Under the pieces are notes generated by a model. The model did no database searches. It was not told where the DNA came from and worked only from the letters and a program-made list of their open reading frames with translations. Positions 6,099 through 53,996 of a DNA stretch of 64,000 bases are shown in pieces (position 1 is the stretch's first letter; every line of letters begins with the position of its first letter). Both the position numbers and the translations under genes were made by a program. The stretch comes from Clostridia bacterium (GTDB taxonomy: Bacteria; Bacillota; Clostridia; TANB77; CAG-508): NCBI GenBank assembly GCA_017528085.1, contig JAFXPH010000006.1, positions 4,376 through 68,375 of the forward strand, in the 5' to 3' direction.

Positions 6099-9000
6099 AT
6101 GAGTATTTTCTATGAAGAGGGTAATGAAGAAGAAGATGATGATTTAGACCCAAATAAGAAACAAAACGATGGTCAAGAAGATGAATCAAGTGAGTTTGAA
6201 GATGAGATTAGGGATAAATTAAAAGAAGAATTAAAGGAAAGAGATCAAGCAAAGAATCAGGAGCAAGCTAATAAAGACACTACTCAATCAAATCAAAATG
6301 GACAAGCTGAAGGTTCAAACAATACTCAAGGACAAGGAAATGGAACAGATTCTGCTCAAACTGGTTCTCAAAATGGACCACAAAATGGACCTCAAAGTGG
6401 ACCAGAAACGACTGGACAAGGACCAAGTACTTCAGGTACTACACCAAATGCTGCATCAGGTACAGCAAATGCAACTACTAATGCTACTAATGCAGGTGTT
6501 AATGCAGGAAGTAATGCAGCAGCTAGTACAACAGCAAGTACTGGAGCAGCTGGAACTGCAGGTGGAACTGCAGCAGCAGGTGCAGGTGGAGCAACAGCAG
6601 CAGGAGGAGCCGCAGCAGGAGGTTCAGCAGCAGCAGCTGGTGGAACTGCCGCAGCAGGTGCAGCTAGTGCCGGTGGAGCCGCAGCAGCAGGAGGTGCAGC
6701 AGCTGGTCTTGGAGTTGTACTATTCTGGGTATTAGTAGTTGCAATTATTTTATTTATTTTGATAGGTATAATTGCATTCTTATTAACAATGCCTGGTGTA
6801 GCATTGGCTAAATTAAAACAATTATTTGGAGTTTTGAAACAAGCCGTTGTAGCTTTCTTCGGTGGAGATACAACACAAATGATAGCTAACCAAGACATGT
6901 ATGATATTATGGATTACATAGAATCTATGGGTTATGACTTAAAAGGTGATGGATACTTAACTGAATTCTATGGAAGAGATTATTTAGCAAGTAGTGAATT
7001 TATAGATAGAATTAAACAAGATAACGAAGAAAGAGTAGAGAAAACTGGTGATACAAGTAAAAACTTACCAGAAGATACAACTGAAGGTTTTAGTTATGAA
7101 AACGGTGCAATAAGATATGGAGATAAGATAGCTGTTGCAGATAGTGATTTCTTAACTACATATATGATGAGTGATAACTATTGTTATACTGTAAAAAACT
7201 TTAACTTAGCTACTCAACAATCTGATGACAACTGGATTCAATCAATTTGGCATGGTATTGTAGCCCTTGCAGAAAAAGTTAATAGATGGGCCGCAAATCT
7301 AGTTGGGGCAAGTACAAAATCTGCTTCTAGATGGGGCAAGGGTATGATTTACCTAAAAGAAAGAAGTGCTTCTAGACAGAATGAATGGGATTGGGAAAAA
7401 CTTCCAGAATGGGCAAATGGATATACTTTATTCAAAGGTTCAAAAAGTGCTGAATTAGATGCAGGTGCACAAACTTTAACAATTAAAACAACGGAATGGT
7501 TTACATCAACTAAGATTGAATATTCACTTGAAGGTTGGACAGGCCGTTATGGTATGCCAATAGAATTCTTGCTTGCTATACATCAAGCAACAAGAATGCC
7601 TGACTTACCAATGAGTATGGTTGATTATTTCCCAACAACAATAAATATTGTATTAAATTCCGGAACAGTAGATGTTGATGCTATGGCTGTTGGTACTAAA
7701 GATACTCTAAGTAAAAGAGAAATTAAAGGTGACGGTTTATGGGATTGGCTTACTGGTGGAGGAGTAAATGAAATACAAATGTGTATAAAATATGGCTTCT
7801 GTGCTCCAGATTGTGAAGGAGTAGATGATAAAATCACAGGAGAACATGTTAATTGTTGTAATCAAACAATTCCTGAAGGTACAGACATAATGGAATATAC
7901 AGATCTTTCTATTTGCGATGCTTGTAAAACATATATGGATGGAATTACATCAGGAATTCAAGAGACAAATAGAGAAAATGCTGATACATATATACCATTT
8001 ATCCATAGCGTAAAAAATCATTGGTATAGAGATGTATTATTTGTAGCAAAGAGAGATAGCGAAGTAATAAATATTGATGATGATTATGAATTATTAATGG
8101 ATGAAAGATGGACTTTATACGATACAGATGATAATGGAAATACAATTTGGTATAAAGTTGACGAAAATGGAGAAACAACAAATGAAAAATGGAATGGAAC
8201 TAAAAAGGAAGCTCTAGAGGCTGGTGTAGCAGTTGCTAGAAAGGCTAAATTATCAAAACTAGAAGATAAATTTAAACCAGAAGGTTCAGATGACGAGAAA
8301 AATAAAGAGTTCCAAGGTGATTGGTGGACAGCATATTCATTTACTGATCAACAATCATCAGCTAAAGAAAAAGCATTCCCTGAGGAACCTCCAGAGAGTG
8401 GAAAAAGCCAAGTTTATTATGTTATGACTTTCACATCTGGTTATCCTAAACAATTAGAAGACGGTCAAAGAACAGAAACAAATAATATAATTAAAGATTT
8501 ATTCTTGAATAAATATTATTTGGCTTATAATGGTCAAGGGGATACAGCAGAAGAAATTTATAATTTAAGAAAAGAATTTTTAAGCAATAAGAGTTATAAT
8601 ACAGATCCAGAGTATGCAACAATGCCAGATGGTTCATATTATTATGGACCTATTCCAGATAATATGATTGAAAAAATGCTTACTACTACAGAGGCAGGCG
8701 GAAAGATTCTAAATAAAGAAGATGAGACATATGTAATGGCAAATCCTAACTATAATGCTCAACAGGAAGCAGTTTCAGGAGATGATCCTACAGCAGAAAA
8801 TGGAAATGTTTCTCATGAGAAATTAAACTTAGTAAATTACATTGCGCTACCTTCAGTAGACTCAAAAGCATTAGAAGCATTTACAATGTTAGAACATATG
8901 CATTCAGTTGATGCAGACTTTATTTATAAAGATTTTAAAGAATTAATAGTAGAACTTGGATATTTTGACAAAGAAGCATTAGCAGATCATATACCAGAGT

Positions 9001-11855
9001 TATTTGAATTTATAATTCCTGATATAGGATCAGGCGGTTTCCCAAAGAGAGAAATGGACAAGAGCGAACAATATGAAGGTACATTAGCACATTCAAAAGA
9101 GGACTATACAATTAATGAACAAAACACATTTGCTGCATTAGTTTCTACAATGACACCAGAGATTGACCCAGCATTATCAAAAGAGCAATACTTTAATGCT
9201 GTAAGTGATTTAAAATATGAAACAGAAGATGGTCAAACTATCGACCCTCAAGGAAAATCAAATCTATTCAGTGCGGCTGCTGCAGGAGATACAAATGCTG
9301 TACAAGGAGCAAGTGCATTTACAGCCGATAGTGAGACAACTGCTAAAACTTCATTTAGCAGACCAGTTGGAGCAAAAGTTAAAGGTGCTGCAAGATCTGT
9401 TGAATCTGTATCAATAGATGAATTCATAGAAGTTAACCAAGAAATGATAGACTACTGTATGCAAACAGGATATGATTATTGTGTATTAGTTGGTGATGCA
9501 GGTAATGGAGAACAAAATTGTAATCACGCACCAGTTCACGGAAATTCATGTAATTTACCAACATCATTTGAGAAGTCAAAAAATGGTGGTATACCAACTG
9601 CAAACTATTGTTGTGCTACATTGGTTTGCTGGGCACTTCAAAATGTTGAAGTTATTCCTGAATCTGACCATTTAGATGGTGCTGATTCACTTTGTGAATA
9701 TATTAAAAACGTATTAAATGCAGAAGTAATTCAAATAGGTGAACCATTAGAAGTTGGTGATATATTCTGCTATGATGGACATATTGACTATTTAGGTAAT
9801 GAAGACTCTGGTGGATTGATACTATTTAATGGTGGTCACTATTGTCCAATAGGATCTTCACTGGACTCAGATCATTCAGCATCACGTCACCAAAATGGTT
9901 GGCCAAGTGATGATAGATTAAAATTTGCATTAAGACTACCTTGGGGTGGTAAGAAGAAAGAACCTAAAAACTATGAAGGATTCATGGGAGGCGAAGCAGT
10001 AGTTTCACCAGTAACAGGTATTCTATTAGATTATGGTGTTTATGATGGTTCAATAACAAAGGAGACAAAGACAGTTGGCGAAGGAGATTTTGCTAACACA
10101 GTTGAAATACAACATGGACCAGACAGAGTAAACTTAAATAAATTATATCCTCCAATGGGATATCAATCAGTAATAGTTAACAAAAATAATGGAAAAGATA
10201 ATGATAATAATCAACCTGATACTCAAGTAACCACAGATGGACAAGAAGGAAAAGACCACATTGGTATGACACCAGAAGACATAGCAGAAACAACAGGTGG
10301 AGAGGTTGTAATAGATAAAGTTGCTTATGCTAAGATAATGACTTTAGATTATACTCATATTCAAAAGTTGGAAAATCACTTAGCTCACAATATACCACTA
10401 GCAGGAGGTGCGACATCACTTGTAAATTCAGAAGGTGGATTTGTTGAAGCAGATAAGATTAGTCCAGATAAGATAAGAGATTGGACAGATGATGAGATTA
10501 CATTATATGGCTATAAAGAGTTTGCAGAGTTATATTCAAAGTTTGGACTAGGTGGAACAATTATAACAATTGATGGATTTAAACCTGAAGCTCCAGTTGA
10601 AAAAGATGAAGAGGAAGAAGAGAAAACATATTCATCAGATCCAAGAGCTGAATATACAAATGTAAGTACAGAACCTCTAGGCGATGGTATTACACTTTCT
10701 AAATCATACTTTGCAAGTCAAAGTAAAGAATATAAGAAAACAAGATATGAACCTGATACAATCTATCAATTATCAACTGAAGCTGCTACAGATAAACAAA
10801 ATGCTGAAGCAACAATTAAGAAAGGTGCATATGCTATGTTAGCATATGGCGAAGATGAAATATATATTAAAGAAGGTACAGTTTTAGGTAGAACATATAC
10901 AAATAAAGAGTTTATAACAGAATGTAGAGATGGAGAATCATACGTAGATACTTATGATTCAAGAAAAGATCCAGATAATGAAGATGCTGCTACATTCTAT
11001 CAAAAGGATATGGATGGTAACTATATTAGAATAATAATGACTACATCAGATCAAACAACAGTAGAAAATGTTGAAGACTACATGAAGCTAGATGAAGTAG
11101 TTCATGACTTAGAAATCACAGATTGGTTATTATTCTACTGGATTCCATTTGAAGGTGGATGTACAAATACAACACCATATCAAGTAAAAGTAGTACAAAG
11201 ATATACAGGACCTTCATCAATAAGTACATGTTCAGAAGGTGAGGTTGCTATTGGTATTATCCAAGAGACAAGTTTGACAAGTAAAGGAATGTGTAACCAA
11301 AGAGATCAATTTGTACCATTCATGAAAAAGAATTATCCAGAAGTTTATAGCTACATTAGAGTTATGGATGGTAAAGATGCAAATTGGTGGTGGGAAGACT
11401 TTAATGGTGCTAACCAAGCACAAAAAGCAATTTCAGCATGTGATAAAGATATGCATGACTTATTACTAAAAGCAGAATTTGAAGAAGCAAAAGAGCACTA
11501 TTATAAGCCATTAATTGAGGAAATTCCATGGTTAGCATCAAAAAATGTTGCAGCTCAAGCTGAAATATTACACTTAAAAGTTTGGGGTGCAGATTATAAT
11601 GATATAACTGAAGGAATGTCAGATAAAGATTTAATAATGTATGCAAGAGAAAAAATCGCAACTACTTCTTCAACTGCAAACCAAAATCCAGATGGTGATA
11701 CAACTAAAGGTAGAGCATTTAATGAACCAGAGATTGGACTTGGTATTCTAGATGGAAGACTATCAGAAAGCGATATTGAAGAATTCGTAAAGACAGGTGA
11801 CTTTGGTATTATCACAAGTCATGGAGTTAAACAAGCTGGAGCTCAAACAAATTAA
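6099..11855 (+). CDS. giant (1918 aa) single-pass membrane protein: acidic + Ala/Gly/Asn/Gln-rich disordered N-terminal region, TM helix, large extracytoplasmic region with Cys-rich segment and CHAP/NlpC-P60-like Cys-His peptidase fold
   Basis: uninterrupted 5.7-kb ORF with AGAGGT RBS; TM at ~aa 240-275 (LGVVLFWVLVVAIILFILIGIIAFLL); motifs YCCATLVCWAL...GDIFCYDGHIDYLG resemble CHAP/peptidase C51 catalytic Cys and His. Confidence 0.75.
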   Translation: MSIFYEEGNEEEDDDLDPNKKQNDGQEDESSEFEDEIRDKLKEELKERDQAKNQEQANKDTTQSNQNGQAEGSNNTQGQGNGTDSAQTGSQNGPQNGPQSGPETTGQGPSTSGTTPNAASGTANATTNATNAGVNAGSNAAASTTASTGAAGTAGGTAAAGAGGATAAGGAAAGGSAAAAGGTAAAGAASAGGAAAAGGAAAGLGVVLFWVLVVAIILFILIGIIAFLLTMPGVALAKLKQLFGVLKQAVVAFFGGDTTQMIANQDMYDIMDYIESMGYDLKGDGYLTEFYGRDYLASSEFIDRIKQDNEERVEKTGDTSKNLPEDTTEGFSYENGAIRYGDKIAVADSDFLTTYMMSDNYCYTVKNFNLATQQSDDNWIQSIWHGIVALAEKVNRWAANLVGASTKSASRWGKGMIYLKERSASRQNEWDWEKLPEWANGYTLFKGSKSAELDAGAQTLTIKTTEWFTSTKIEYSLEGWTGRYGMPIEFLLAIHQATRMPDLPMSMVDYFPTTINIVLNSGTVDVDAMAVGTKDTLSKREIKGDGLWDWLTGGGVNEIQMCIKYGFCAPDCEGVDDKITGEHVNCCNQTIPEGTDIMEYTDLSICDACKTYMDGITSGIQETNRENADTYIPFIHSVKNHWYRDVLFVAKRDSEVINIDDDYELLMDERWTLYDTDDNGNTIWYKVDENGETTNEKWNGTKKEALEAGVAVARKAKLSKLEDKFKPEGSDDEKNKEFQGDWWTAYSFTDQQSSAKEKAFPEEPPESGKSQVYYVMTFTSGYPKQLEDGQRTETNNIIKDLFLNKYYLAYNGQGDTAEEIYNLRKEFLSNKSYNTDPEYATMPDGSYYYGPIPDNMIEKMLTTTEAGGKILNKEDETYVMANPNYNAQQEAVSGDDPTAENGNVSHEKLNLVNYIALPSVDSKALEAFTMLEHMHSVDADFIYKDFKELIVELGYFDKEALADHIPELFEFIIPDIGSGGFPKREMDKSEQYEGTLAHSKEDYTINEQNTFAALVSTMTPEIDPALSKEQYFNAVSDLKYETEDGQTIDPQGKSNLFSAAAAGDTNAVQGASAFTADSETTAKTSFSRPVGAKVKGAARSVESVSIDEFIEVNQEMIDYCMQTGYDYCVLVGDAGNGEQNCNHAPVHGNSCNLPTSFEKSKNGGIPTANYCCATLVCWALQNVEVIPESDHLDGADSLCEYIKNVLNAEVIQIGEPLEVGDIFCYDGHIDYLGNEDSGGLILFNGGHYCPIGSSLDSDHSASRHQNGWPSDDRLKFALRLPWGGKKKEPKNYEGFMGGEAVVSPVTGILLDYGVYDGSITKETKTVGEGDFANTVEIQHGPDRVNLNKLYPPMGYQSVIVNKNNGKDNDNNQPDTQVTTDGQEGKDHIGMTPEDIAETTGGEVVIDKVAYAKIMTLDYTHIQKLENHLAHNIPLAGGATSLVNSEGGFVEADKISPDKIRDWTDDEITLYGYKEFAELYSKFGLGGTIITIDGFKPEAPVEKDEEEEEKTYSSDPRAEYTNVSTEPLGDGITLSKSYFASQSKEYKKTRYEPDTIYQLSTEAATDKQNAEATIKKGAYAMLAYGEDEIYIKEGTVLGRTYTNKEFITECRDGESYVDTYDSRKDPDNEDAATFYQKDMDGNYIRIIMTTSDQTTVENVEDYMKLDEVVHDLEITDWLLFYWIPFEGGCTNTTPYQVKVVQRYTGPSSISTCSEGEVAIGIIQETSLTSKGMCNQRDQFVPFMKKNYPEVYSYIRVMDGKDANWWWEDFNGANQAQKAISACDKDMHDLLLKAEFEEAKEHYYKPLIEEIPWLASKNVAAQAEILHLKVWGADYNDITEGMSDKDLIMYAREKIATTSSTANQNPDGDTTKGRAFNEPEIGLGILDGRLSESDIEEFVKTGDFGIITSHGVKQAGAQTN
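6440..6720 (+). repeat. GC-rich low-complexity tract (GCA/GGT/GGA codon runs encoding poly Ala/Gly/Thr) inside the giant gene
   Basis: runs such as GCAGCAGCAGG / GGTGGAGC repeated; locally much higher GC than the surrounding AT-rich DNA. Confidence 0.7.
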
Positions 11856-42501: not shown

Positions 42502-43305
42502 ATGGAATATCAAAAGTTTATTCCTGAAGGATGGGTTGAAACAAAAGAAGAATTTAATATTGATGGACTAAAGACTGCATTAGAAAACAAAGATGTAATC
42601 CAAGGATATGTTACATCATGCGATAACAATTATAATTTGCATGTAGATCTTGGTAATAATATTAAAGGTGTTATTCCTCGAAATGAAGTAGATGCAATTA
42701 ATAGTGATGAATATGGCTTTTGTAAGCCTAACTTATGCGTTAATAAAGTTAATTCTTTTGTTCAATTTAAAGTAAAAGAAATATATGATAATAACAATGT
42801 TATTTTATCACGTAAAGAGGTTGGAACAGATGCACTTAATTGGGTAAAAACATCACTAGAACCCCATACTGTAATCAATGGTATAGTAAAGAATATTAGA
42901 AAATATGGAGTGTTTGTTGAGATAGGTGGAGGTATGGTAGGCTTGCTACATATCGAAGATATATCTGTTTCAAGAATGAAAACTCCAGAAGAAAGATTCC
43001 AAGTTGGACAAAAAATTCAGGTTATGATAAAATCAATTGACAAAGAAACTGGAAGAATAATTCTTTCTTACAAAGAGTTACTAGGTGACTGGGATGAGAA
43101 CATCAAAAGCTTTAAAGAAAAGATGATTGTTCCGGGAATAATAAAAGAAGCAGATAAATATAAAAATGGTATATTTATTGAACTTAAACCTAATTTGGTT
43201 GGACTTGCTGAATACAAAGAAGGCTTCTCATATGGAGAAAAAGTAAATGTATTCATCAAGAAAATCGTTAAAGATAAAAAGAAAATTAAATTAGTTATTG
43301 TATAG
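42502..43305 (+). CDS. RNA-binding protein with two S1 domains
   Basis: two ~70-aa S1-like OB segments (GYVTS..., GIVKNIRKYGVFVEIGGGMVGLLHISD-like). Confidence 0.65.
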   Translation: MEYQKFIPEGWVETKEEFNIDGLKTALENKDVIQGYVTSCDNNYNLHVDLGNNIKGVIPRNEVDAINSDEYGFCKPNLCVNKVNSFVQFKVKEIYDNNNVILSRKEVGTDALNWVKTSLEPHTVINGIVKNIRKYGVFVEIGGGMVGLLHIEDISVSRMKTPEERFQVGQKIQVMIKSIDKETGRIILSYKELLGDWDENIKSFKEKMIVPGIIKEADKYKNGIFIELKPNLVGLAEYKEGFSYGEKVNVFIKKIVKDKKKIKLVIV

Positions 43306-44254
43306 GAGGATTTTAGAAGTGGTTGAAGATGAAGATATTAAAACTACGGTATCACCATTCGCTATTAGAGAAGGTGAAATTAAGACATTTGATGGTAAAG
43401 ACGGCTACGTTTCTATCAATCAAATAATTCACAAAATTAATTTGGGACACATCAATGAGGTTCATTTTGCAATATTAGATATTGTTAATGAATTTGAGTT
43501 TGTTACATCAAGACAAATATTCCAATTATTACAACTTAGAGGAGTTGAAATTAAATCTCAAGATAAATTGAATATTAAACTTGAGCAATTAGTTAAAACA
43601 AAGATACTTACAAGATATTACTTTACATCTGAAGAGGGTAAAGGAATCTATAGAATATATTGTATGGAAAAGATGGGTAAATATTTACTAAATTCTAAAG
43701 AAGTTGAATGTAAATGGCAACCAACAGACAATATTAAACCAGTTCCATTAATTAAGAAAAGATTGGCTGGAAACCAAGTATTACTTGCTTACATGAGAAA
43801 AGCAAAAGCTTATTCACAAGTTATAGTAAAACCACAAATAACAGCTAAGATGGCAGGAAAATCATTCAAGTGTCATGGTAAAGTTACTTTAGAGAAAGCT
43901 GGAAAATCAATCGATTTAATATTTGAATGTGTTAGAAGAGAAGATGATTGGCAAACAAAATTTGTTGATAGAATGAGATTATATGCTGATTTCTATAATA
44001 ACTTTGTTAAATTTGATTCAGGATTTAATACAATGCCTCAACTTATTTTAGTATGTGAAGATAAAAACCATATGGCAGAATGCTATGTTGAAATTGTTAA
44101 AGCTAAAGTAGAATTTAAGAAATTAAAACTATACTTTACAACAGATTTAGATCAAAACTCTACATCATTAAAGAAATCATTATATGAATTCGTTAAAGAT
44201 GAAGCAACAGGAAAGGTTAAGACAAACAACATAGAGCTTAATATTTTAGGATAA
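43298..44254 (+). CDS. replication-relaxation (Replic_Relax)-family-like wHTH protein
   Basis: N-terminal pattern HFAILDIVNEFEFVTSRQIFQLL matches the conserved wHTH of replication-relaxation proteins as I recall it; start overlaps previous gene. Confidence 0.4.
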   Translation: MYRRILEVVEDEDIKTTVSPFAIREGEIKTFDGKDGYVSINQIIHKINLGHINEVHFAILDIVNEFEFVTSRQIFQLLQLRGVEIKSQDKLNIKLEQLVKTKILTRYYFTSEEGKGIYRIYCMEKMGKYLLNSKEVECKWQPTDNIKPVPLIKKRLAGNQVLLAYMRKAKAYSQVIVKPQITAKMAGKSFKCHGKVTLEKAGKSIDLIFECVRREDDWQTKFVDRMRLYADFYNNFVKFDSGFNTMPQLILVCEDKNHMAECYVEIVKAKVEFKKLKLYFTTDLDQNSTSLKKSLYEFVKDEATGKVKTNNIELNILG

Positions 44255-44259
44255 TAAAA

Positions 44260-44292
44260 AGGAGAGGAATAGGGAAGCTATTCCTCTTTTTT
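44260..44292 (+). terminator. rho-independent terminator
   Basis: AGAGGAATAG-GGAAGC-TATTCCTCT hairpin + T6. Confidence 0.75.
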
Positions 44293-44301
44293 GGAGGATA
44301 T

Positions 44302-44670
44302 ATGAAAAGGAAAACTTTTTTGGAAATAATGATAATTATTTGTGTAATACTTGCATTTTATACTGTGAGTGAAAAGGCACAAGTTGTGAATTTAATGAAT
44401 AGAGGATACTATCCACTAATTGATGTTATGAGATACTATGGATATAATTCTACTGGCCTTTATGAATTCAAAAAAGGTGATGACATAGTTAAATTTGAAC
44501 AAAGTACAAAAACTCTAATAGTTAATAATGATAAGTATGTATTATCAGAAGAAGAATTTCTTTTAGGCAAAAACATGATATATTTATCAAATAGTGTCTA
44601 TATGAGAGCATTTGGAATCTCTGTAGATAATGATGGAACAACTATGGACATTGTTCAAGTAGATACTTAA
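44302..44670 (+). CDS. small secreted/anchored protein (122 aa), unknown
   Basis: GGAGGA RBS; N-terminal hydrophobic signal/anchor. Confidence 0.45.
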   Translation: MKRKTFLEIMIIICVILAFYTVSEKAQVVNLMNRGYYPLIDVMRYYGYNSTGLYEFKKGDDIVKFEQSTKTLIVNNDKYVLSEEEFLLGKNMIYLSNSVYMRAFGISVDNDGTTMDIVQVDT

Positions 44671-44671
44671 A

Positions 44672-44715
44672 TAAAAACAAAAAAGCGACTACATTAAGTA
44701 GTCGCTTTTAATTTT
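44672..44715. terminator. bidirectional rho-independent terminator
   Basis: AAAGCGACTAC-ATTAA-GTAGTCGCTTT hairpin between convergent genes. Confidence 0.75.
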
Positions 44716-44717
44716 TA

Positions 44718-47096
44718 TTATTGTTTTTTGTTATGTTTGATGCTGCTATCATTTTTGTTTTTTCTCATATCGATGATTGCATCTTGATCATCAGCATCAT
44801 ATACCATATCATGCGTTCTAGTTTGAATTGGATTAATAGAATGCATTTCATCTTCTGGTAAGTTATCGAAGTCTATATTTGAATAATTAAACTTAGATGA
44901 TAATTTTTTAGCTTCGTTTTCTTCTTTCTTTTCAATTCCTCCAGCAAACTTAGCAAAGTTAAATGTTCTAATTTTTTGTTTTTGTTTATATTTGCTTTCA
45001 AGGAAATCAAGTTTTGCTTGACCAACAAGCATCTTACCATTAACATCTCTTGTCTTGTATATACAAGCTTTAAATTTAAGTGAGTTAATTTTACCCATCT
45101 TAAAGTTTTCTTTCCAAGCCCAAGATATTGATTTATATGTTGTATCGTATTCACCTTTATCTGTTTTATAGTCGTTAGTGAATTTCCACTCTCTCTTATC
45201 ACCAAACTCTTTTTGCCACCATTCGTTATCTTCTGGAGTGTTATTACCAAATACGATTTTTGTAGAACAGTTAGCTAGAATTGTTTGTCTGAAGTTATAA
45301 TCATTGTTTACACCAAATTGTGATAAGTTTTGTGCAGATATAATTGTACCAACTCTATACTTTCTATATAGTGTGAATATATCTTCTGTTGCTCTACATA
45401 CATATGGTGGGAATTCATCAATGTATAAGAAGTGAGGGATTCTTGTCTTTTCTGTACCTGGTCTAGTTAATACTGAGTATTGCATTAATAGTAAGAAGAA
45501 TAGACCAAATGCTTTATGAATTGATGCTCCTAAGTCTCCACGTCTTGTACATAATAGTATGATTTCACCATTTGCTAAAGCTTTATCATAATTTAAGTTT
45601 TCATGTCTATTACATAGAATATTCTTTACTCCAGGATATCTTAATAGATTTTCAAGTTGAGCAATTGTAGGTTGTAAACATTTTTCTGTTTCTGCTCTTC
45701 CAGAACCATCTTTAAAGAAGTTTTTCTTGAAGTAATTTATTTGATATTTATATTTCTCAGTCAAGTCTTCATGTTCTTGAAGCTGAGCAACCATTTTTTC
45801 AACATTATCAAAGTTATTAATTAATTCTAGTAAATCTTCTAGAGTAGGTAGGTCACCTGAGTGTTCTCTAGGATATAATTCTTTAAGTACTAATACTAAG
45901 TTTTCAACTGCTTGACTAGAAATGTTTTGCATATATGCTTGATCTACAGTTACGTTTCTAGTTAAGTTTATATCTGTATCATACAATCTCTTTAATACTG
46001 ATGAAATTGCAATAGATGTTTTAACTGGGTCTGTGAATATAAATGGGTTTAGTCCAACAGAATTTGTTGAATCATTTGGATCTATTAATTTATATTTGAA
46101 ACCAAAGTTTGTACATACATCTTTTATATGTTCAATTGACTCTATATCTGGAGCCATATATGTTATACCTAAATCTTTAAATGTTGACTTGTTTCCGTTG
46201 TATGAGTACATTAACTTTTTAAAGAAAGATTGGAAAACTTTTTCTTTGTTGTTCCCTGGTGATAACATGTTAAGTGAAAAATTATCATTAATATATTCAT
46301 TTGAATATGGACTATTAAGAATTGCAACACCAGCTTTTAATGCTGTATAACCCATCTCTTTAGCTGACTCTTTAAAGAAGTGCTTTCTTTCAATATCTCT
46401 AGCAATCATTGGTTCGAATACCATTGATGTTTTACCTGAACCAGATACACCAACAACTAACATTGATTCGAATCTTCTTGATTCAGGAATCTTAATTGTT
46501 GTACCAAATTCTTTATCTCTACATAAGTATATCTCACAAGAGAATGGTCCAACGAATTCGCTCTTTTTATTTATATTAATTCCACCATAATCAAATATTG
46601 AGTCTCTTAAATCCTTTGTATCATCAACGAATGTGTATAACCATTTAAATAGTGGATAGAATGATATGATTGGTACATACCAAGCGAATGATGATAATGC
46701 TGGATGAATTAAGTAATCAAATGAAGTTATAACATACTTGTAATTAGGTACCATAAATAAAAGCGTCCAGCTTAATTTGTTTACCCATTGAATAACCATT
46801 GATGCTAACATTATATATAGAGATATTGTATATATGTAGAAGAATTGTAGTTTGATTTTATCATCAGTTACGAATTTAGATCCACCTGATAGATAGAATG
46901 CAGCTACGGGAACAGCCATTGCTATAGTGTACTTAATAGGTCCCCAATAATCTACGGATATACCTGTAAAGCCTATCAATAATATTTCAACAAATCTGTC
47001 TATTACGACATAGAACGCCATTAATGTAAATAAATATGTAAAGAATGTGTTTCTGTCGGTTTTTAACTTCTTTAAGAACTTATCTAAAATATTCAT
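44718..47096 (-). CDS. membrane-anchored P-loop ATPase resembling type IV secretion coupling protein (VirD4/TraG/TraD-like)
   Basis: 792 aa; ~4 N-terminal TM helices; Walker A VVGVSGSGKTS, Walker-B-like LYIDEF, downstream IISAQNLSQF (T4CP/FtsK-like Q motif). Confidence 0.5.
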   Translation of the reverse strand: MNILDKFLKKLKTDRNTFFTYLFTLMAFYVVIDRFVEILLIGFTGISVDYWGPIKYTIAMAVPVAAFYLSGGSKFVTDDKIKLQFFYIYTISLYIMLASMVIQWVNKLSWTLLFMVPNYKYVITSFDYLIHPALSSFAWYVPIISFYPLFKWLYTFVDDTKDLRDSIFDYGGININKKSEFVGPFSCEIYLCRDKEFGTTIKIPESRRFESMLVVGVSGSGKTSMVFEPMIARDIERKHFFKESAKEMGYTALKAGVAILNSPYSNEYINDNFSLNMLSPGNNKEKVFQSFFKKLMYSYNGNKSTFKDLGITYMAPDIESIEHIKDVCTNFGFKYKLIDPNDSTNSVGLNPFIFTDPVKTSIAISSVLKRLYDTDINLTRNVTVDQAYMQNISSQAVENLVLVLKELYPREHSGDLPTLEDLLELINNFDNVEKMVAQLQEHEDLTEKYKYQINYFKKNFFKDGSGRAETEKCLQPTIAQLENLLRYPGVKNILCNRHENLNYDKALANGEIILLCTRRGDLGASIHKAFGLFFLLLMQYSVLTRPGTEKTRIPHFLYIDEFPPYVCRATEDIFTLYRKYRVGTIISAQNLSQFGVNNDYNFRQTILANCSTKIVFGNNTPEDNEWWQKEFGDKREWKFTNDYKTDKGEYDTTYKSISWAWKENFKMGKINSLKFKACIYKTRDVNGKMLVGQAKLDFLESKYKQKQKIRTFNFAKFAGGIEKKEENEAKKLSSKFNYSNIDFDNLPEDEMHSINPIQTRTHDMVYDADDQDAIIDMRKNKNDSSIKHNKKQ

Positions 47097-47517
47097 ATTC
47101 CACCGCTTTCTTAAAAATAATATTCTTATCTATATTATGCTACAAAATCGGAAAAAAAACAAGTATTTTTAGCAAAAAATAGCTAGTTTTCATAATTTTT
47201 TACACATTTTTTTGCCATTATTAATTACATTATATATAAATAAAATAAAATGATTTTTAGAAATTTTAAAAATATTACAAAAATAATACAAAAAAATTAA
47301 AAATTTTTGAAAAAAGTTCAACTCTAGTTAAAGGGGCGAACGCCTTGGGAATAAAAGAATACAAAAGACGAAAACCTTATACATATTGAAAAATAAATAA
47401 AGAAAAATAAAAAAAAAGAAGGAAAAAAATCTAATGTGTCGAATAGATTAATTGTAGAACAAAAAAATATAGAAGCTTCTACAATAATATACTTAATTCT
47501 ATTAGGAGGTAATTAGA

Positions 47518-49226: not shown

Positions 49227-49640
49227 ATGCTAAAAAAAGTATTAATCTTAACAATGGTATTTATGTGCGTATTAGGTATGTTTTTCATGTTTTCAAATGC
49301 AGACTCAGAATATGATGCTGTTATTGAACAACATGATGACCCAGAATTAGTTCAAATGAGGGAATCAACAGCTGCAAAATTAGAAGGCTATGTAGCAGCA
49401 TATGGTTCATATCCATATGGTGTAGCTGCAGCAATCTTGAATGTTGTTAGAATTTACAGTATTCCATTTTGCTTTGTTGGTATAGCATTAGGATCTATAT
49501 ACCAATATGTTATTGGTATAAGAAGATTAGATGTTAGAGATAGAGGTTTCCACCTTATCATAACATTTGTAACTATATTGGTAATATGCCAAATTTTACC
49601 ATTACTTTTTGCTGTAATAGTAACAGGTTGGAGGAGTTAA
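49227..49640 (+). CDS. small polytopic membrane protein (137 aa)
   Basis: AAGGGGG RBS; 3-4 TM helices. Confidence 0.5.
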   Translation: MLKKVLILTMVFMCVLGMFFMFSNADSEYDAVIEQHDDPELVQMRESTAAKLEGYVAAYGSYPYGVAAAILNVVRIYSIPFCFVGIALGSIYQYVIGIRRLDVRDRGFHLIITFVTILVICQILPLLFAVIVTGWRS

Positions 49641-49643
49641 CGA

Positions 49644-52600
49644 ATGAAAGTTTTATTTGCAGTTAGTAGCGAGGCTATTTCAGAAGGAATAGTTAGACAA
49701 TATCAAAAAGAATATAAAGAGATATTGTCTTATAAAAATGTTTATTACTTTAATGCAATATTAAAAGAAATACAACAAGATAAATCATATGACAGAATTG
49801 TCATATCAGAGGATTTAGAGTCATTTTCAAATAATAACTACGAACAAATCGATAAGTTCTTATTTGAGAAGTTAGATAATATTAGTGATGAGGCACAAGA
49901 TATTAATGGTCAAGAAACAGCAATCATTTTAATATGTTCTGAAAGAAGAAACAAGGGTAGTGCTTTCTTAAACAAGATTTTTAGTATCGGTATTTATAAT
50001 GCTTTATTAGGTCAAGATAGAATTAAGACAAATGTTTGTAAATTAATTAATAAGCCTAGAATTAAAAAAGAAGCCAAGACATACTATGCTATTGATGCTG
50101 AAGATGCTAATTATGATCAAAGCAATGATGAAGAAGTATCTGAAATTGAAATAACAAATATTAGAAATCACTTTAGAAAATTAGGAAAGAATACTGATAA
50201 GTATGCTGAGAGCTTTAATAATATTGCTGCTCAATATACTGATGATCAATTAAAAATTGTTGTTAACTGTTTACCTGCACAAGTTAAACAAGTTCTTGAA
50301 AAAACATCACCAAGATATCAAGAATTTATGGCAGCAGGAAATGTTAAATCAGTTGCTAATATGTCTGTTGAAGAAGAAGCAAAATCTTCAGGATTAAAGA
50401 TGGACTTCATTTCTAAGAATAAAAATACTATTGATAAACCAATAGTTATTCCATCTTCAGTTCGTAGAAGAACACCTTCTGCTTCAGGAACAGCAAGCTC
50501 TAGTTCAAGTGGTGTATCTACAATTAGAAGAGTAACAAACACAATTAAGCCAGAAGCAAATAAAGCTCCAACTCCAGCTGAAGAAAAAACAGCAGAAAAT
50601 GTTGAGAATGAACTTGATGCGCTAGATGATTTACTAGCACCTCAAGAAGATAAAGCAAATGATATTAATGATAATTTATTAAATATGGATAATACATCAA
50701 ATGAAGTTCCAAATGAATCAGCAGATGATATGTTATCAGCACTAGATGACTTGGGTGGAACTGATGATCTACTAAATCCAGAACCAACAGCAGAAGAACC
50801 TGTTGTAGAAGAAACTGCTAAAGAGGATGATGGAATACTTCCAGGATTCGATGATTTAGGAGGATCAGATGATTTATTAAATCCAGAACCAACAGCAGAA
50901 GCACCTGCTGCAGAGGATGATGGAATTCTTCCAGGATTCGATGATTTAGGTGGAACTGATGACTTATTAAATCCAGAACCAACAGCAGAAGAACCTGCTG
51001 CAGAGGATGATGGAATTCTTCCAGGATTCGATGATTTAGGAGGATCAGATGATTTATTAAATCCAGAACCAACAGCAGAGGAACCTGCTACAGATGATGA
51101 TTTATTACCAGGATTTGATGACTTAGGAGGATCAGATGATTTATTAAATCCAGAACCAACAGCAGAAGAACCTGCTACAGAGGATGATGGAATACTTCCA
51201 GGATTCGATGATTTAGGTGGAACTGATGACCTATTAAATCCAGAGCCAACAGCAGAAAAACCTGCTACAGAGGATGATGGAATACTTCCAGGATTTGATG
51301 ATTTAGGTGGAACTGATGACCTATTAAATCCAGAACCAACAGTAGAAAAACCTGCTGAAGAAGATGATATGCTTCCAGGATTAGATGATTTAGGTGGAAC
51401 TGATGATTTATTAAATCCAGAACCAACAGTAGAAGAATCTACTGAAGAAGATGACATGCTTCCAGGATTAGACGATCTTTCAAATATAGATGATGAAGAA
51501 CCTAAAAAGAGAGGTAGAGGAAGACCAAGAAAAATTATTACTGAGCCTCCAAAACCAAAGGGAAAAAGAGGTAGACCTAGAAAAAATCCTGTTGGAGAAG
51601 ATGGTTCAACATTACCTGGAATGGGATTTGAAGATGATGAATATACAGACGAAGTAGACATCGAAGGATTAGATGAACTTGATGATTACACAGATGAAAG
51701 CTTCGGCGATGTTGAAACAAACAACACTGCAGATGATGGAATGTTACCAGGATTTGATGATTTAGATGTTACTGATGATACTACATCAGATTCATCTGAA
51801 AGTTCAGTTGATGATTTATTATCAGGATTAGATGATTTAGGAGGAGATACTCCTGTAGCTGACAGCACTCCTAGTGATGATATGCTACCAGGTTTAGATG
51901 ATGTAGATGATTTATTAGGTGGCGAAACTCCAGCAAATAATAATCCTGAACCTACTAAGATAGATACTGTAAAACCAACAGTAGATTATTCAATGTCAAG
52001 TTTAAATAGTTTATTAACACCAGATAAGAAGATAGCAACATTTATAGGAACATCTAAAAATGGTACATCTTTCTTAGTTAATAACCTTGGATTATTATTT
52101 GATACAATTGGTAAGAATGTAGCTATCTTAGATATGACTAAAAATAGAAATTCTTATTACATCTTTAATTGTAACGATGAAGAGTTAAGAAAAGTATGTA
52201 ATAATTCATTTAGCAATTTGGAAAGAGGTGTAGCAGAAGGAATTAGAGTTAAACCTAATTTAACTGTTTATACTGGACTACCAGATGATGGAAAAGTGTA
52301 TAAAAATGTTGAAGCTATGCTATCAACATTAGTACAAAATCATGATATAGTATTAATAGATTGTGATTTTGATACAGATCCTTCATTCTTTGCTAAGTGT
52401 CAAGAAATATATCTTGTTCAATCAATGGATACATTAACAATTCAACCATTGACATACTTCTTAAAGATATTACAAGATAGAGAAGTATTAGAACCAGAAA
52501 AAATTAGAATAGTACTTAACAAAGTAGTTAAGTTAAGAGGATTCCAACCAAAAGATTTCGTTGGAGGTATGTCATGTTATAATGCTCCTTCAATGTCAGT

Positions 52601-52895
52601 AATGAGAACATTGTTTAATCCTCAATTAGTAAAAGTGTTTACAATAAACTTTGAAGAAAGTGTTTATATTAGATACTTAGATGCTATTGCAGCATGTAAG
52701 ATGACTTTAGATGGTTACTCAAAGACATTTATGGCTGCATTAAAGCAACTTGCTCAATCTGTTTATTCATTTAACAATGGTGGCGGAATGAGAACAAATA
52801 TTGGTGCACCAACTCAACCACAAATGAGACCAGGAGCACAATTTACAAGTAATATGAATAACACATTAGACAAAATGAAAAGAAATATGAATTAG
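49644..52895 (+). CDS. modular 1083-aa protein: receiver-like N-domain, ~8 near-perfect plus ~4 degenerate acidic [DDGILPGFDDLGG(S/T)DDLLNPEPTAEEPA]-type motifs, two AT-hooks (GRGRPRK, KRGRPRK), C-terminal MinD/ParA-like domain with degenerate Walker A
   Basis: GGAGGAG RBS 7 nt before ATG 49644; repeats visible in DNA; C-terminal IATFIGTSKNGTSFLVNNLG...VAILDMT...IVLIDCDFD aligns to MinD/ParA deviant Walker A region but lacks the GK[ST] lysine. Confidence 0.7.
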   Translation: MKVLFAVSSEAISEGIVRQYQKEYKEILSYKNVYYFNAILKEIQQDKSYDRIVISEDLESFSNNNYEQIDKFLFEKLDNISDEAQDINGQETAIILICSERRNKGSAFLNKIFSIGIYNALLGQDRIKTNVCKLINKPRIKKEAKTYYAIDAEDANYDQSNDEEVSEIEITNIRNHFRKLGKNTDKYAESFNNIAAQYTDDQLKIVVNCLPAQVKQVLEKTSPRYQEFMAAGNVKSVANMSVEEEAKSSGLKMDFISKNKNTIDKPIVIPSSVRRRTPSASGTASSSSSGVSTIRRVTNTIKPEANKAPTPAEEKTAENVENELDALDDLLAPQEDKANDINDNLLNMDNTSNEVPNESADDMLSALDDLGGTDDLLNPEPTAEEPVVEETAKEDDGILPGFDDLGGSDDLLNPEPTAEAPAAEDDGILPGFDDLGGTDDLLNPEPTAEEPAAEDDGILPGFDDLGGSDDLLNPEPTAEEPATDDDLLPGFDDLGGSDDLLNPEPTAEEPATEDDGILPGFDDLGGTDDLLNPEPTAEKPATEDDGILPGFDDLGGTDDLLNPEPTVEKPAEEDDMLPGLDDLGGTDDLLNPEPTVEESTEEDDMLPGLDDLSNIDDEEPKKRGRGRPRKIITEPPKPKGKRGRPRKNPVGEDGSTLPGMGFEDDEYTDEVDIEGLDELDDYTDESFGDVETNNTADDGMLPGFDDLDVTDDTTSDSSESSVDDLLSGLDDLGGDTPVADSTPSDDMLPGLDDVDDLLGGETPANNNPEPTKIDTVKPTVDYSMSSLNSLLTPDKKIATFIGTSKNGTSFLVNNLGLLFDTIGKNVAILDMTKNRNSYYIFNCNDEELRKVCNNSFSNLERGVAEGIRVKPNLTVYTGLPDDGKVYKNVEAMLSTLVQNHDIVLIDCDFDTDPSFFAKCQEIYLVQSMDTLTIQPLTYFLKILQDREVLEPEKIRIVLNKVVKLRGFQPKDFVGGMSCYNAPSMSVMRTLFNPQLVKVFTINFEESVYIRYLDAIAACKMTLDGYSKTFMAALKQLAQSVYSFNNGGGMRTNIGAPTQPQMRPGAQFTSNMNNTLDKMKRNMN
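50730..51480 (+). repeat. in-frame tandem repeat, 90-nt period (about 8 near-identical copies, one 87-nt), followed by degenerate copies to ~51940
   Basis: unit GAGGATGATGGAATWCTTCCAGGATTCGATGATTTAGGWGGAWCWGATGAYTTATTAAATCCAGAACCAACAGCAGAAGMACCTGCTGCA recurring at 50823, 50913, 51003, 51090, 51180, 51270, 51361, 51451. Confidence 0.85.
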
Positions 52896-52910: not shown

Positions 52911-53996
52911 TTGGCGATATTTTTAGCTATTGTTCTTGTCATTATAATAATAATACTAGTTTGTTATAACATCGACTTACAGAAAAAAATTAAAATGTTT
53001 AATAACATCAATGAGAAGATTAACAACTTAAGTATTTTACAGAACTTCATGGAAATTGCAGGTGAAGAGGATTCTGTAGAAGATAAATTGGCAAAGATCA
53101 ATGAAATTGTAATTGAAAAATATGATATTAAGTATTCTACTATAGTTGTTTTTGACGGTGCAGAATTCGTTATCAAAGCATCAAATGTTGATAAGATTCA
53201 TTATGATACACTTGCAAATATCCATCAAGAAGAGATATTCCAAGACAGTATTCAAACAGCAACGCCAAAATATATAACAATAGAAGATGAAAATGAAAAA
53301 CTTCCTTATCAAAAGGTTGAAATGGGTAGAGCTAAATCTGCAATGTTTTTCCCATTGTTTACAGACAACATTTTCACAGGTTACTGGATAATGGAAAGTG
53401 GAAAGATGCATGCATTCGATAATATTGATACAACAATTATTGAAGTTGTTAAGACAAATATCGTAAATGTTCTTTCAACTGTATCTTATCAAAGTACTAT
53501 TGAAAATACTGTAAGAGTAGATCAATTTACAGGACTATATTCACCAGAACACTTATATACTGCTGGTAGAAAAATATATGATAAATATGATACTTCAGCC
53601 GTATGTATGTTTAAAATAGCTAATATCGAAGAAATAAATGAAAAAGTTAGTAGACAAGTTGGTAACGATATAATTACTGAAATTAGTAATATAGTTAAGA
53701 CAAAGATGTCTAACCAATACATTTTCGTAAGATATATGGGACCAAGATTTGTTATAGTATTCTCTGGAGTTGATGAGGGTTCAGTTGAAGAATTCTTAAA
53801 AGACTTAAAGAGAGAGATGGAAGAAGTAGAAGTAGTTGAAGAAAGAGATGGCCAGACAGCACTCTCTGCTTCACCACTTATCAATTTCGTAATTAGTACA
53901 TACTACAAAGGAACTGGTATGGAACAATTATGTAAGAGATTGGAAGAATACTTAGATTCAGCAGATAAATCTGAAAACCAAATTAATTATATTTAG
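52911..53996 (+). CDS. membrane-anchored protein with degenerate GGDEF-like C-terminal domain
   Basis: TTG start after GAGGTGA RBS; N-terminal TM; VDQFTGLYSPEHL (D-x-TGL-x-N-like) and RYMGPRFVIVF in place of RYGGEEF; no RxxD I-site seen. Confidence 0.5.
   Translation: MAIFLAIVLVIIIIILVCYNIDLQKKIKMFNNINEKINNLSILQNFMEIAGEEDSVEDKLAKINEIVIEKYDIKYSTIVVFDGAEFVIKASNVDKIHYDTLANIHQEEIFQDSIQTATPKYITIEDENEKLPYQKVEMGRAKSAMFFPLFTDNIFTGYWIMESGKMHAFDNIDTTIIEVVKTNIVNVLSTVSYQSTIENTVRVDQFTGLYSPEHLYTAGRKIYDKYDTSAVCMFKIANIEEINEKVSRQVGNDIITEISNIVKTKMSNQYIFVRYMGPRFVIVFSGVDEGSVEEFLKDLKREMEEVEVVEERDGQTALSASPLINFVISTYYKGTGMEQLCKRLEEYLDSADKSENQINYI

Follow-up and report, generated by a model that had tools for sequence, protein, structure and literature searches.

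A stretch of 64,000 nt from contig JAFXPH010000006.1 of a Clostridia bacterium (assembly GCA_017528085.1), referred to here as the window, was analyzed, and all positions are given in window numbering. The subject is a locus at positions 42502 to 47096, where the gene of an S1-domain protein is followed by that of a winged helix-turn-helix (wHTH) protein assigned to the Replic_Relax family, and where the gene of a 792-aa membrane ATPase resembling type IV coupling proteins (T4CPs) converges on these two. A first-pass annotation, made from the sequence of the window, had described the wHTH protein and the ATPase as an orphan conjugation-like pair and had offered three explanations, namely a decayed mobile element, a minimal mobilization module, and a domesticated DNA-translocation system.

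Genes and features of the locus

The following genes and features, including one open reading frame (ORF) of 122 codons and the flanking intergenic region, were identified at the locus.

42502–43305, plus strand: S1-domain (OB-fold) protein, 267 aa; first gene of the S1–wHTH pair (Pfam S1)
43319–44254, plus strand: Replic_Relax (MOB_C-relaxase-family) wHTH protein, 311 aa (PF13814, ortholog alignment)
44263–44287, plus strand: terminator-like hairpin with T-run after the wHTH gene, inverted repeat I13 (scan and direct reading)
44302–44670, plus strand: 122-aa ORF with an N-terminal hydrophobic segment; lineage-specific insert between the convergent genes
44681–44709, no strand assigned: bidirectional intrinsic-terminator-like hairpin with a 12-bp stem and T-runs on both strands, between the 122-aa ORF and the ATPase gene
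44718–47096, minus strand: VirD4/TraG-type coupling-protein-like ATPase, 792 aa (Pfam TraG-D_C, TrwB_AAD_bind)
47097–47517, no strand assigned: AT-rich divergent intergenic region between the ATPase gene and hup (encoding HU), presumed to hold both promoters

The wHTH gene most likely starts at the GTG at 43319, which has a GGAGG about 9 nt upstream and gives a product of 311 aa as in all orthologs. With this start the gene begins 13 nt after the stop codon of the S1 gene (43303–43305), in the same operon, and the overlap implied by the ORF of the first-pass annotation, which begins at 43298, does not occur. A bidirectional terminator, said to be common to the wHTH and ATPase genes, does exist at 44681–44709; it is common to the 122-aa ORF and the ATPase gene, whereas the wHTH gene has a hairpin of its own at 44263–44287. 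For this latter hairpin the terminator scan called the minus strand only, and direct reading showed that the plus-strand stem also precedes TTTTT.

The 122-aa ORF gave a weak Pfam match to Cu_amine_oxidN1 (21.3 bits versus a cut-off of 24.2). It was missing from 90 related loci and present only in the nearest relative, L097, indicating that it is not part of the conserved module. It is also fast-evolving, with 78% identity to the L097 copy as compared with about 98% for the flanking genes. Proteins with a Cu_amine_oxidN1 'stalk' domain were also observed near the module in a distant relative (L086, described below) and on a megaplasmid of Aneurinibacillus.

The G+C content of the window is 29.6%, and the composition is unbroken at the locus. 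Elsewhere, the window is ordinary core chromosome, with genes for RNase HII, Mfd, PepF, RuvA, Mur ligases, SSB, RuvX and similar functions. No VirB4, VirB6 or other type IV secretion system (T4SS) gene, integrase, FtsK or oriT-like repeat array was found within the 64-kb window, and neither an integrase nor att-like repeats were found around the locus. The earlier statement that VirB4, integrase and repeats are missing nearby thus stands for the window; the accompanying statement that no relaxase is nearby was misleading, as Replic_Relax is itself the MOB_C relaxase family (PMC5357655).

Family assignment of the three proteins

The ATPase carries the Walker A motif GVSGSGKTS (residues 216–224), the Walker B motif LYIDEF (residues 557–562) and the motif SAQNLSQF (residues 587–594), all three named in the first-pass annotation, which had also recognized the layout of a T4CP. 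In Pfam searches, the protein scored above the cut-off for both TraG-D_C (36.5 bits, cut-off 22) and TrwB_AAD_bind (22.3 bits, cut-off 20.5), confirming that layout, and was marginally under the cut-off for T4SS-DNA_transf (19.9 bits, cut-off 20.1). The score against NCBIfam conju_CD1115, a VirD4-like conjugal transfer protein, was 37 bits, far under the equivalog cut-off of 250. No Pfam match to FtsK_SpoIIIE or Ftsk_gamma was obtained at E <= 0.1, and no FtsK structure was among the Foldseek matches of the predicted model; the possibility, named beforehand, that the protein is a canonical FtsK/SpoIIIE with a gamma domain was not borne out.

At least 2590 orthologs of the ATPase, about 780 aa in length, were found. 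The top 120 were 62–72% identical, except for one 99% match (P0001), and all 120 listed carried a precomputed PF12696 annotation, with PF10412 and/or PF02534 on most. The Walker A, Walker B and QNLSQ sensor motifs were invariant among the orthologs, as were G216, G221, K222, T223, D560 and E561. The layout comprises an N-terminal membrane domain (approximately residues 1–160), a P-loop nucleotide-binding domain with a helical insert, a variable linker, and a conserved C-terminal tail motif. In the AlphaFold2 (AF2) model, long helices were placed at residues 15–44, 52–69, 79–114, and 127–159. Only two segments passed a strict hydropathy threshold, but the charge pattern fits a positive-inside arrangement with both termini inside (N-in/C-in); four transmembrane helices, as proposed earlier, are thus plausible from the modeled helices and the charge pattern, with hydropathy in agreement for two of them.

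The helical insert between Walker A and Walker B (approximately residues 384–500) was modeled at a predicted local distance difference test score (pLDDT) of about 80–89. The sole significant Foldseek matches of the model were Cagβ (8dol, VirD4-family, E = 4e-7) and DndH-C (TraG-like C-domain, E = 2.6e-4), and searching the family profile against PDB sequences found no solved structure, with DotL at E = 0.26. Since fold matches were limited to Cagβ and DndH-C and no structure was found by sequence, the family appears to be a remote branch of the T4CPs. The 792-aa ATPase is classified, from its profile matches, as a T4CP of VirD4/TraG type and not as an FtsK. Anti-phage defense was considered as an alternative function and rejected: PADLOC returned only a weak match to mad8 (35.6 bits), read as generic P-loop similarity, and no defense-system context was seen.

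The tail motif of the ATPase, …[DEG]P[IV][QK]…aromatic-x-[FL]-[DEN]-x-[ED]-x-[AP]-I…, stands at the end of a variable low-complexity tail (44718–44950, residues about 720–792). Relatives at 30–32% identity keep this motif in reduced form, with …PIKY or PIQY at the very C-terminus. By analogy, the motif may correspond to the partner-docking tails of other T4CPs.

The wHTH protein of the window scored 20.1 bits against PF13814, under the cut-off of 25.3, and the match covered profile positions 1–109 only (residues 60–166 of the 318-aa ORF). Two syntenic orthologs were above the cut-off, with 35.8 bits (positions 1–178 of 191) and 30.2 bits (positions 1–188 of 191); the genuine TraX of plasmid pTEF1 scored 28.5 bits, less than both. 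Because it is the syntenic orthologs and not the window protein that pass, membership in PF13814 holds at the level of the orthologous family, and to this extent the earlier assignment to Replic_Relax was retained, with a corrected start codon. At least 5217 homologs were found, with approximately 70–77% identity among the top matches, and about one quarter of those listed carried a precomputed PF13814 annotation.

PF13814 was listed by Coluzzi et al. as the MOB_C relaxase superfamily (PMC5357655), and Steczkiewicz et al. placed Replic_Relax, usually fused to an HTH, in the PD-(D/E)XK superfamily (PMC3424549). The MOB_C prototypes, TraX of pAD1 and MobC of CloDF13, have an N-terminal wHTH and a restriction-endonuclease-like catalytic domain; relaxases of this type possess a 'DEE' metal motif, and no covalent DNA intermediate has been detected (PMC12857230, PMC6736028). 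Judged by the profile matches of its orthologs, the wHTH protein belongs to this Replic_Relax, or MOB_C relaxase, family and is, at least by family, the relaxase said to be missing from the locus.

In the AF2 model of the wHTH protein, helices at residues 54–100 fall in the Pfam-matched region. The C-terminal α/β domain (approximately residues 150–312) had block-mean pLDDT values of 72–95 over residues 151–310, mostly 85–95 up to residue 280, and residues 1–49 and 102–145 were poorly modeled. The top Foldseek matches were mostly PD-(D/E)XK nucleases (Can2, FokI, Nt.BspD6I, PaqCI, Cap4, Card1, YaeQ, and XisH), none of them at E <= 0.001. Residues 1–49 (43319–43465; …SPFAIREGEIKTFDGKDGYVS.NQI..KIN.GHI…) were nearly invariant in the orthologs and recognizable in the plasmid relatives described below, and had a pLDDT of 25–40. 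Such near-invariance in a segment of so low a pLDDT suggests that it folds only upon binding a partner.

The S1 protein scored 86.5 bits against Pfam S1, in two stretches. Its best NCBIfam score, 112 bits as compared with a cut-off of 624, shows that it is no rpsA equivalog, and it is a candidate for an accessory protein that binds single-stranded nucleic acid. Gram-positive conjugation is known to employ accessory proteins with an OB fold, HelP being one example (PMC12857230).

Linkage, conservation and plasmid relatives

Linkage was counted in the best 80 species loci of the T4CP gene and in 80 metagenome loci of the wHTH gene. In 69 of the 74 metagenome loci with room for it (93%), the wHTH gene was directly preceded by an S1-domain gene of the same orientation. 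The S1 gene is therefore the tightest partner of the wHTH gene and part of the module, not merely an rRNA-modification gene, and the earlier description as an orphan pair was incomplete. Of the 75 species loci that were informative, 56 (about 75%) had a full-length wHTH gene downstream of the T4CP gene and converging on it, usually 30–300 nt away; the remaining 19 had room yet no wHTH gene, and another 5 of the 80 were too short to judge. Viewed from the other side, 45 of 72 wHTH loci with downstream room (about 62%) had a T4CP gene (convergent downstream in 44), and 27 had none. Loci in which the two were separated had PFL, AdhE or IspH after RluB–S1–wHTH and kept the T4CP gene beside MurJ–HU, with its tail motif conserved. 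The separation fits rearrangement between convergent genes rather than loss.

More distant relatives retain related arrangements. In L086 (35% identity), S1→wHTH is followed by a convergent T4CP gene in another neighborhood, with Mfd, Pth, PolA and SLH-domain proteins; in L089 (31% identity), HU–Fmt–T4CP is followed by convergent Replic_Relax–RluB–RluD. L087 (27% identity) lies near an integrase and a ParM-like gene, in surroundings that resemble a plasmid, and marks the edge of the chromosomal family. The S1/wHTH/T4CP arrangement is old, and a unit of three genes, built around the tightly linked S1–wHTH pair, describes it better than the pair named at first.

A survey using one genome per GTDB species found relatives of the T4CP gene in at least 571 species. 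The best 80 T4CP-carrying species were all represented by metagenome-assembled genomes of uncultured gut or rumen Clostridia, at 50–68% identity, and the sole named genus among them was Candidatus Scatovivens. A conserved gene order, Mur ligases–SSB–LspA–WecG–RluD–RluB–S1–wHTH, convergent T4CP, (MurJ)–HU, was kept in relatives about 65% identical and, more broadly, over the range of 50–68% identity, and HU adjoined the T4CP gene in 76 of 85 related loci. Most relatives have a gene for a murJ-like flippase between the T4CP gene and hup; here it is missing, and a 421-nt AT-rich spacer is found instead.

Over the 80 species loci, identity of the T4CP tracked that of the flanking genes, with Spearman ρ of 0.67 for RluD, 0.53 for HU, and 0.69 for a 605-aa membrane protein, and the wHTH protein was conserved to the same degree as RluD (mean identity 69.4% versus 69.5%). 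The ORFs were intact in nearly all loci, and total G+C and G+C at third codon positions (GC3) matched those of the neighbors. The locus is thus vertically inherited, chromosomally fixed and core-like.

No relatives were found on viral contigs, and in tblastn searches of a phage collection the wHTH protein had no match and the T4CP one partial match, in a Microcystis phage. A phage or viral origin was rejected on these results.

Searches of plasmids by tblastn showed that remote homologs of both proteins, wHTH and T4CP, co-reside on the pFWSKR40E1 family of Clostridium botulinum, on p1 of C. beijerinckii, and on pMU3262 of Thermoanaerobacterium. On each of these three plasmid types the wHTH homolog directly follows a gene labeled 'S1 RNA-binding domain', and a megaplasmid of Aneurinibacillus has the same S1→wHTH order amid genes for RecD-like, topoisomerase IA and RecJ proteins. 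The adjacent S1 and Replic_Relax-like pairs were located as follows.

L093, 15629–17429: pair on the C. botulinum plasmid
L092, 19411–21214: pair on the C. beijerinckii plasmid
L096, 5029–6792: pair on the Thermoanaerobacterium plasmid
L178, 8992–10739: pair on the Aneurinibacillus megaplasmid

In BLASTP comparisons of the window proteins with those of the C. botulinum plasmid, the S1 proteins were 27% identical over 261 aa (E = 4e-19), the wHTH proteins were 28% identical over the N-terminal 163 aa (E = 2e-16), and the T4CPs (E = 2e-57) shared 31% identity in a stretch of 471 aa and 26% in another of 235 aa, the latter covering two of the N-terminal helices. Among the other products of the C. 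botulinum plasmid are DUF3854, Rad52, a ParM-like protein, a VirB4-like ATPase (DUF87/AAA_10), a cell-wall hydrolase (C39_2+3D), and a large membrane protein of which one segment is T4SS_pilin-like; pMU3262 was typed MPF_T. PLSDB/MOB-suite types these plasmids as 'non-mobilizable', with no relaxase. As none has a typed relaxase, and two show T4SS-type genes, the S1 and Replic_Relax-like cassette is a candidate for, and may be, the unrecognized relaxosome or relaxase of these plasmids.

Interpretation and comparison with known systems

On balance, we take the locus to be a fixed, perhaps host-captured relative of the DNA-processing and coupling modules of plasmids (DNA transfer and replication, or Dtr, type), consisting of an S1/OB protein, a Replic_Relax wHTH protein and a membrane-bound hexameric ATPase of VirD4/TraG type. 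Among the explanations offered by the first-pass annotation, a domesticated DNA-translocation system fits best. In such a module the wHTH protein would recognize one or more specific DNA sites, and the S1 protein would bind the single-stranded nucleic acid exposed at the wHTH-bound site. The wHTH/S1 complex could then dock on the membrane ATPase, maybe through the C-terminal tail of the ATPase and the invariant N-terminal segment of the wHTH protein, and the ATPase would spend ATP in moving or presenting DNA at the membrane. The leading candidates for the output would be export or donation of chromosomal DNA, either alone or via the T4SSs of co-resident elements, and a housekeeping chromosome transaction. 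A fuller proposal is offered only tentatively, as one possibility among several: that a relaxosome-and-coupling module with no T4SS of its own has been captured by the host as a core function, that it exports or donates chromosomal DNA or carries out an unrecognized chromosome transaction at the membrane, and that its Replic_Relax active site is unlike that of TraX.

Several known systems resemble the locus in part. On the pAD1-type plasmid pTEF1, a MOB_C-typed Replic_Relax wHTH gene (TraX) adjoins the gene of an ATPase with TraG-D_C/TrwB_AAD_bind domains (a 'TraM recognition domain' protein), again without an HUH relaxase and with a relaxase family related to restriction endonucleases (PMC12857230). 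It differs in that the window genes converge, lie on a chromosome and pass vertically from parent to offspring, without a T4SS in the vicinity; the S1-domain partner has no counterpart in pTEF1, and the residues aligned with Y181 and the presumed D152/E170/E172 of TraX are not conserved in the window family. MobC and MobB of CloDF13 (MOB_C1) likewise form a minimal set of a MOB_C-family protein and a transmembrane-anchored T4CP of its own, without a mating channel (PMC7431656), but on a small mobilizable plasmid of Enterobacteria with a defined oriT and not at a fixed locus of a Clostridia chromosome. The comparison with CloDF13 was made by description, the deposited sequence being too frameshifted to recover MobC or MobB. 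The earlier suggestion of a minimal mobilization module is apt as to resemblance, a MOB_C relaxase with its own T4CP as in CloDF13 or pAD1, but not as to behavior, since the locus is not mobile.

The S1, Replic_Relax-like and T4CP genes of the clostridial plasmids are the closest homologs outside the chromosomal family and have an identical S1→wHTH order. They are only 27–31% identical, with wHTH similarity limited to the N-terminal half; the plasmid T4CP lies several kb from the S1–wHTH pair, T4SS-type genes occur on two of the plasmids, and the modules are uncharacterized. The TraI/TraD proteins of the gonococcal genetic island (GGI) of Neisseria gonorrhoeae, and TdtA of ICEth1 with Tth111II in Thermus thermophilus, similarly combine a non-HUH nuclease-type protein with a membrane-associated hexameric ATPase acting on chromosomal DNA (PMC6736028, PMC5365140). 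For GGI TraI, as for MOB_C relaxases, no stable covalent relaxase–DNA intermediate was detected (PMC6736028). Both systems are on horizontally acquired islands, the GGI encodes a complete T4SS, and TdtA belongs to the HerA/FtsK type of ATPases; homology to the window locus does not extend beyond the P-loop level. The 'DNA translocation operon' of Bacillus phages 0305phi8-36 and SPO1 also pairs a MobC-family wHTH protein with a VirD4-like ATPase outside a conjugative element (PMC3357382), but is phage-borne, and its ATPase has no N-terminal transmembrane domain. The cst-type clostridial conjugation locus was set aside as unrelated, since it uses a MOB_P-type relaxase.

A number of results weigh against the captured-module interpretation. 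No T4SS or known DNA channel was found within ±10 kb in 85 related loci or in the 64-kb window, and the intergenic regions flanking the module held no convincing oriT-like repeat array. The AF2 model of the ATPase was weak overall (pLDDT 55.5, TM-scores <=0.42). The T4CP and wHTH genes are non-adjacent in about 25–38% of loci, and co-occurrence in those genomes is inferred. The S1 protein of the window is equally similar to generic S1/RpsA-type and to plasmid S1 proteins, so that its link to the plasmid module rests on gene order, and a similar S1 gene stands alone in Pusillibacter. The presumed catalytic residues also appear to differ. Tyr181 of TraX, reported as essential, aligned by MAFFT with the invariant Phe 232 of the wHTH family, and the D152/E170/E172 triad of TraX, an assignment made here from the pTEF1 sequence, aligned with positions 206 (D/N/S/Q), 221 (K/N/V) and 223 (V/I/L); as TraX is only 18% identical, the alignment of catalytic residues is not decisive. 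The chromosomal family and the plasmid relatives share instead R213, (C/G)-E254-D255-x-x-H258 and T281-D283, and nicking activity of the wHTH protein must be regarded as uncertain. Finally, hhalign comparisons of the family profiles with TraX (E = 0.54) and with the pTEF1 T4CP (E = 0.048) were not significant, which says little in view of the low diversity of the alignments (Neff about 1.5).

A specific version of the captured-module interpretation is chromosome mobilization, in which an active relaxosome and T4CP at a chromosomal oriT would feed co-resident T4SSs or release DNA for competent neighbors, as a 'built-in Hfr'. The layout would suit it, as a relaxase with its own T4CP borrows a T4SS in the MOB_C1 system of CloDF13 (PMC7431656) and a similar pair occurs in pAD1-type plasmids; the plasmid homologs accompany T4SS-type genes, the ATPase motifs are intact, and donation of chromosomal DNA has precedents in TraI/TraD of the Neisseria GGI (PMC6736028) and in TdtA with a nicking endonuclease in Thermus (PMC5365140). 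We nevertheless regard it as unlikely: the expected oriT-like repeats were not identified, the wHTH family does not conserve the catalytic residues of TraX where the two align, these genomes have no known helper T4SS, and dependence on variable helpers does not obviously go with strict core-gene conservation.

Slightly less probable again is that the functions are unlinked, with the S1–wHTH operon serving RNA or transcription housekeeping together with RluD/RluB, the wHTH protein being a regulator or a replication-type DNA binder, and the ATPase acting independently, its adjacency being historical. The genes that stand apart, each keeping its own neighbors, would be explained in this way, as would the lack of conservation of the aligned catalytic residues and the resemblance of S1 to generic S1 proteins; transcription regulation has been proposed for HTH-fused Replic_Relax proteins, and 'plasmid replication' is among the listed functions of the family (PMC3424549). 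But convergent adjacency persists down to 31–35% identity in different neighborhoods, several plasmids carry homologs of both the wHTH protein and the T4CP, with S1 directly upstream of the former, amid Rad52, DUF3854, RecD-like helicase, topoisomerase IA and RecJ, and MOB_C-family proteins and T4CPs are known functional partners.

An FtsK/SpoIIIE-like role, as a septal or forespore chromosome translocase that replaces or supplements FtsK and has the wHTH protein as its loader, is improbable. Four N-terminal helices followed by a hexameric-type P-loop ATPase do parallel FtsK/SpoIIIE, as does the core-gene behavior, and FtsK-like proteins can reportedly act as T4CPs, e.g., TcpA (cited in PMC12857230); against this, Pfam matches to FtsK_SpoIIIE and the gamma domain were lacking, the fold matched the VirD4-family Cagβ and not FtsK, and the nearest relatives of the ATPase family are plasmid T4CPs. 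Least credible is a mobile-element remnant or cargo, whether a decayed integrative and conjugative or integrative and mobilizable element (IME) or an IME fixed at one site: although the families are typical of mobile elements, the distant homologs are plasmid-borne, and one relative of 27% identity lies beside an integrase and a ParM-like gene, the explanation is largely refuted, and the decayed element named in the first-pass annotation is rejected, by intact ORFs, synteny in the same housekeeping context in hundreds of species (at least 571), co-divergence with core genes, host-like composition including GC3, and the lack of integrase, att repeats and T4SS.

Other genes of the window and significance of the module

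Other parts of the window also contain unusual genes. At 49644–52895 (plus strand) a 1083-aa protein is encoded. Its N-terminal region is receiver-like, its C-terminal domain is of ParA/MinD/CpaE-like character with the deviant Walker A GTSKNGTS, and it also contains two AT-hooks (RGRPRK) and some ten acidic repeats in tandem (…DDGILPGFDDLGG[TS]DDLLNPEPTAEEPA…); Pfam finds AT_hook only. This gene, a preceding gene for a 137-aa membrane protein (49227–49640) and a following one for a 361-aa protein (52911–53996), relatives of which show a weak GGDEF match, were conserved together in 12 of 85 related loci. A 1918-aa ORF at 6099–11855 (plus strand) had no Pfam match at E <= 1e-5 and lies amid a well-annotated housekeeping region. 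Tandem paralogous genes for pyrimidine-nucleoside phosphorylase (Glycos_transf_3 + PYNP_C) were found at 1454–2773 and 2789–4093, both on the plus strand.

The presence of relaxases and coupling proteins is usually taken as the mark of a mobile element, and tools such as MOB-suite and CONJScan rely on it when they call mobility. The ComB system of Helicobacter pylori is a T4SS channel captured by its host. Both protein families of the present locus, and their pairing, are already known; what is new is the fixed, syntenic, core-like chromosomal setting in a large uncultured lineage, apparently without a T4SS, together with the S1 partner and the lack of TraX-type catalytic residues at the positions aligned with them. 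In the literature searched, no description was found of a fixed core-like chromosomal module of a relaxase-family protein and a T4CP without a channel.

If hundreds of gut species keep a relaxase-family protein and a T4CP as vertically inherited core genes, this would be a clear instance of a host having captured parts of a conjugation system but not its channel. In mobilome surveys of gut metagenomes, loci of this kind will be mistaken for IMEs or mobilizable islands. The locus makes it possible to study a T4CP without a T4SS encoded beside it, and to ask whether a MOB_C-family protein can act when a TraX-type active site is lacking. If donation of chromosomal DNA is true, the module would be a lineage-wide, built-in system of gene exchange.

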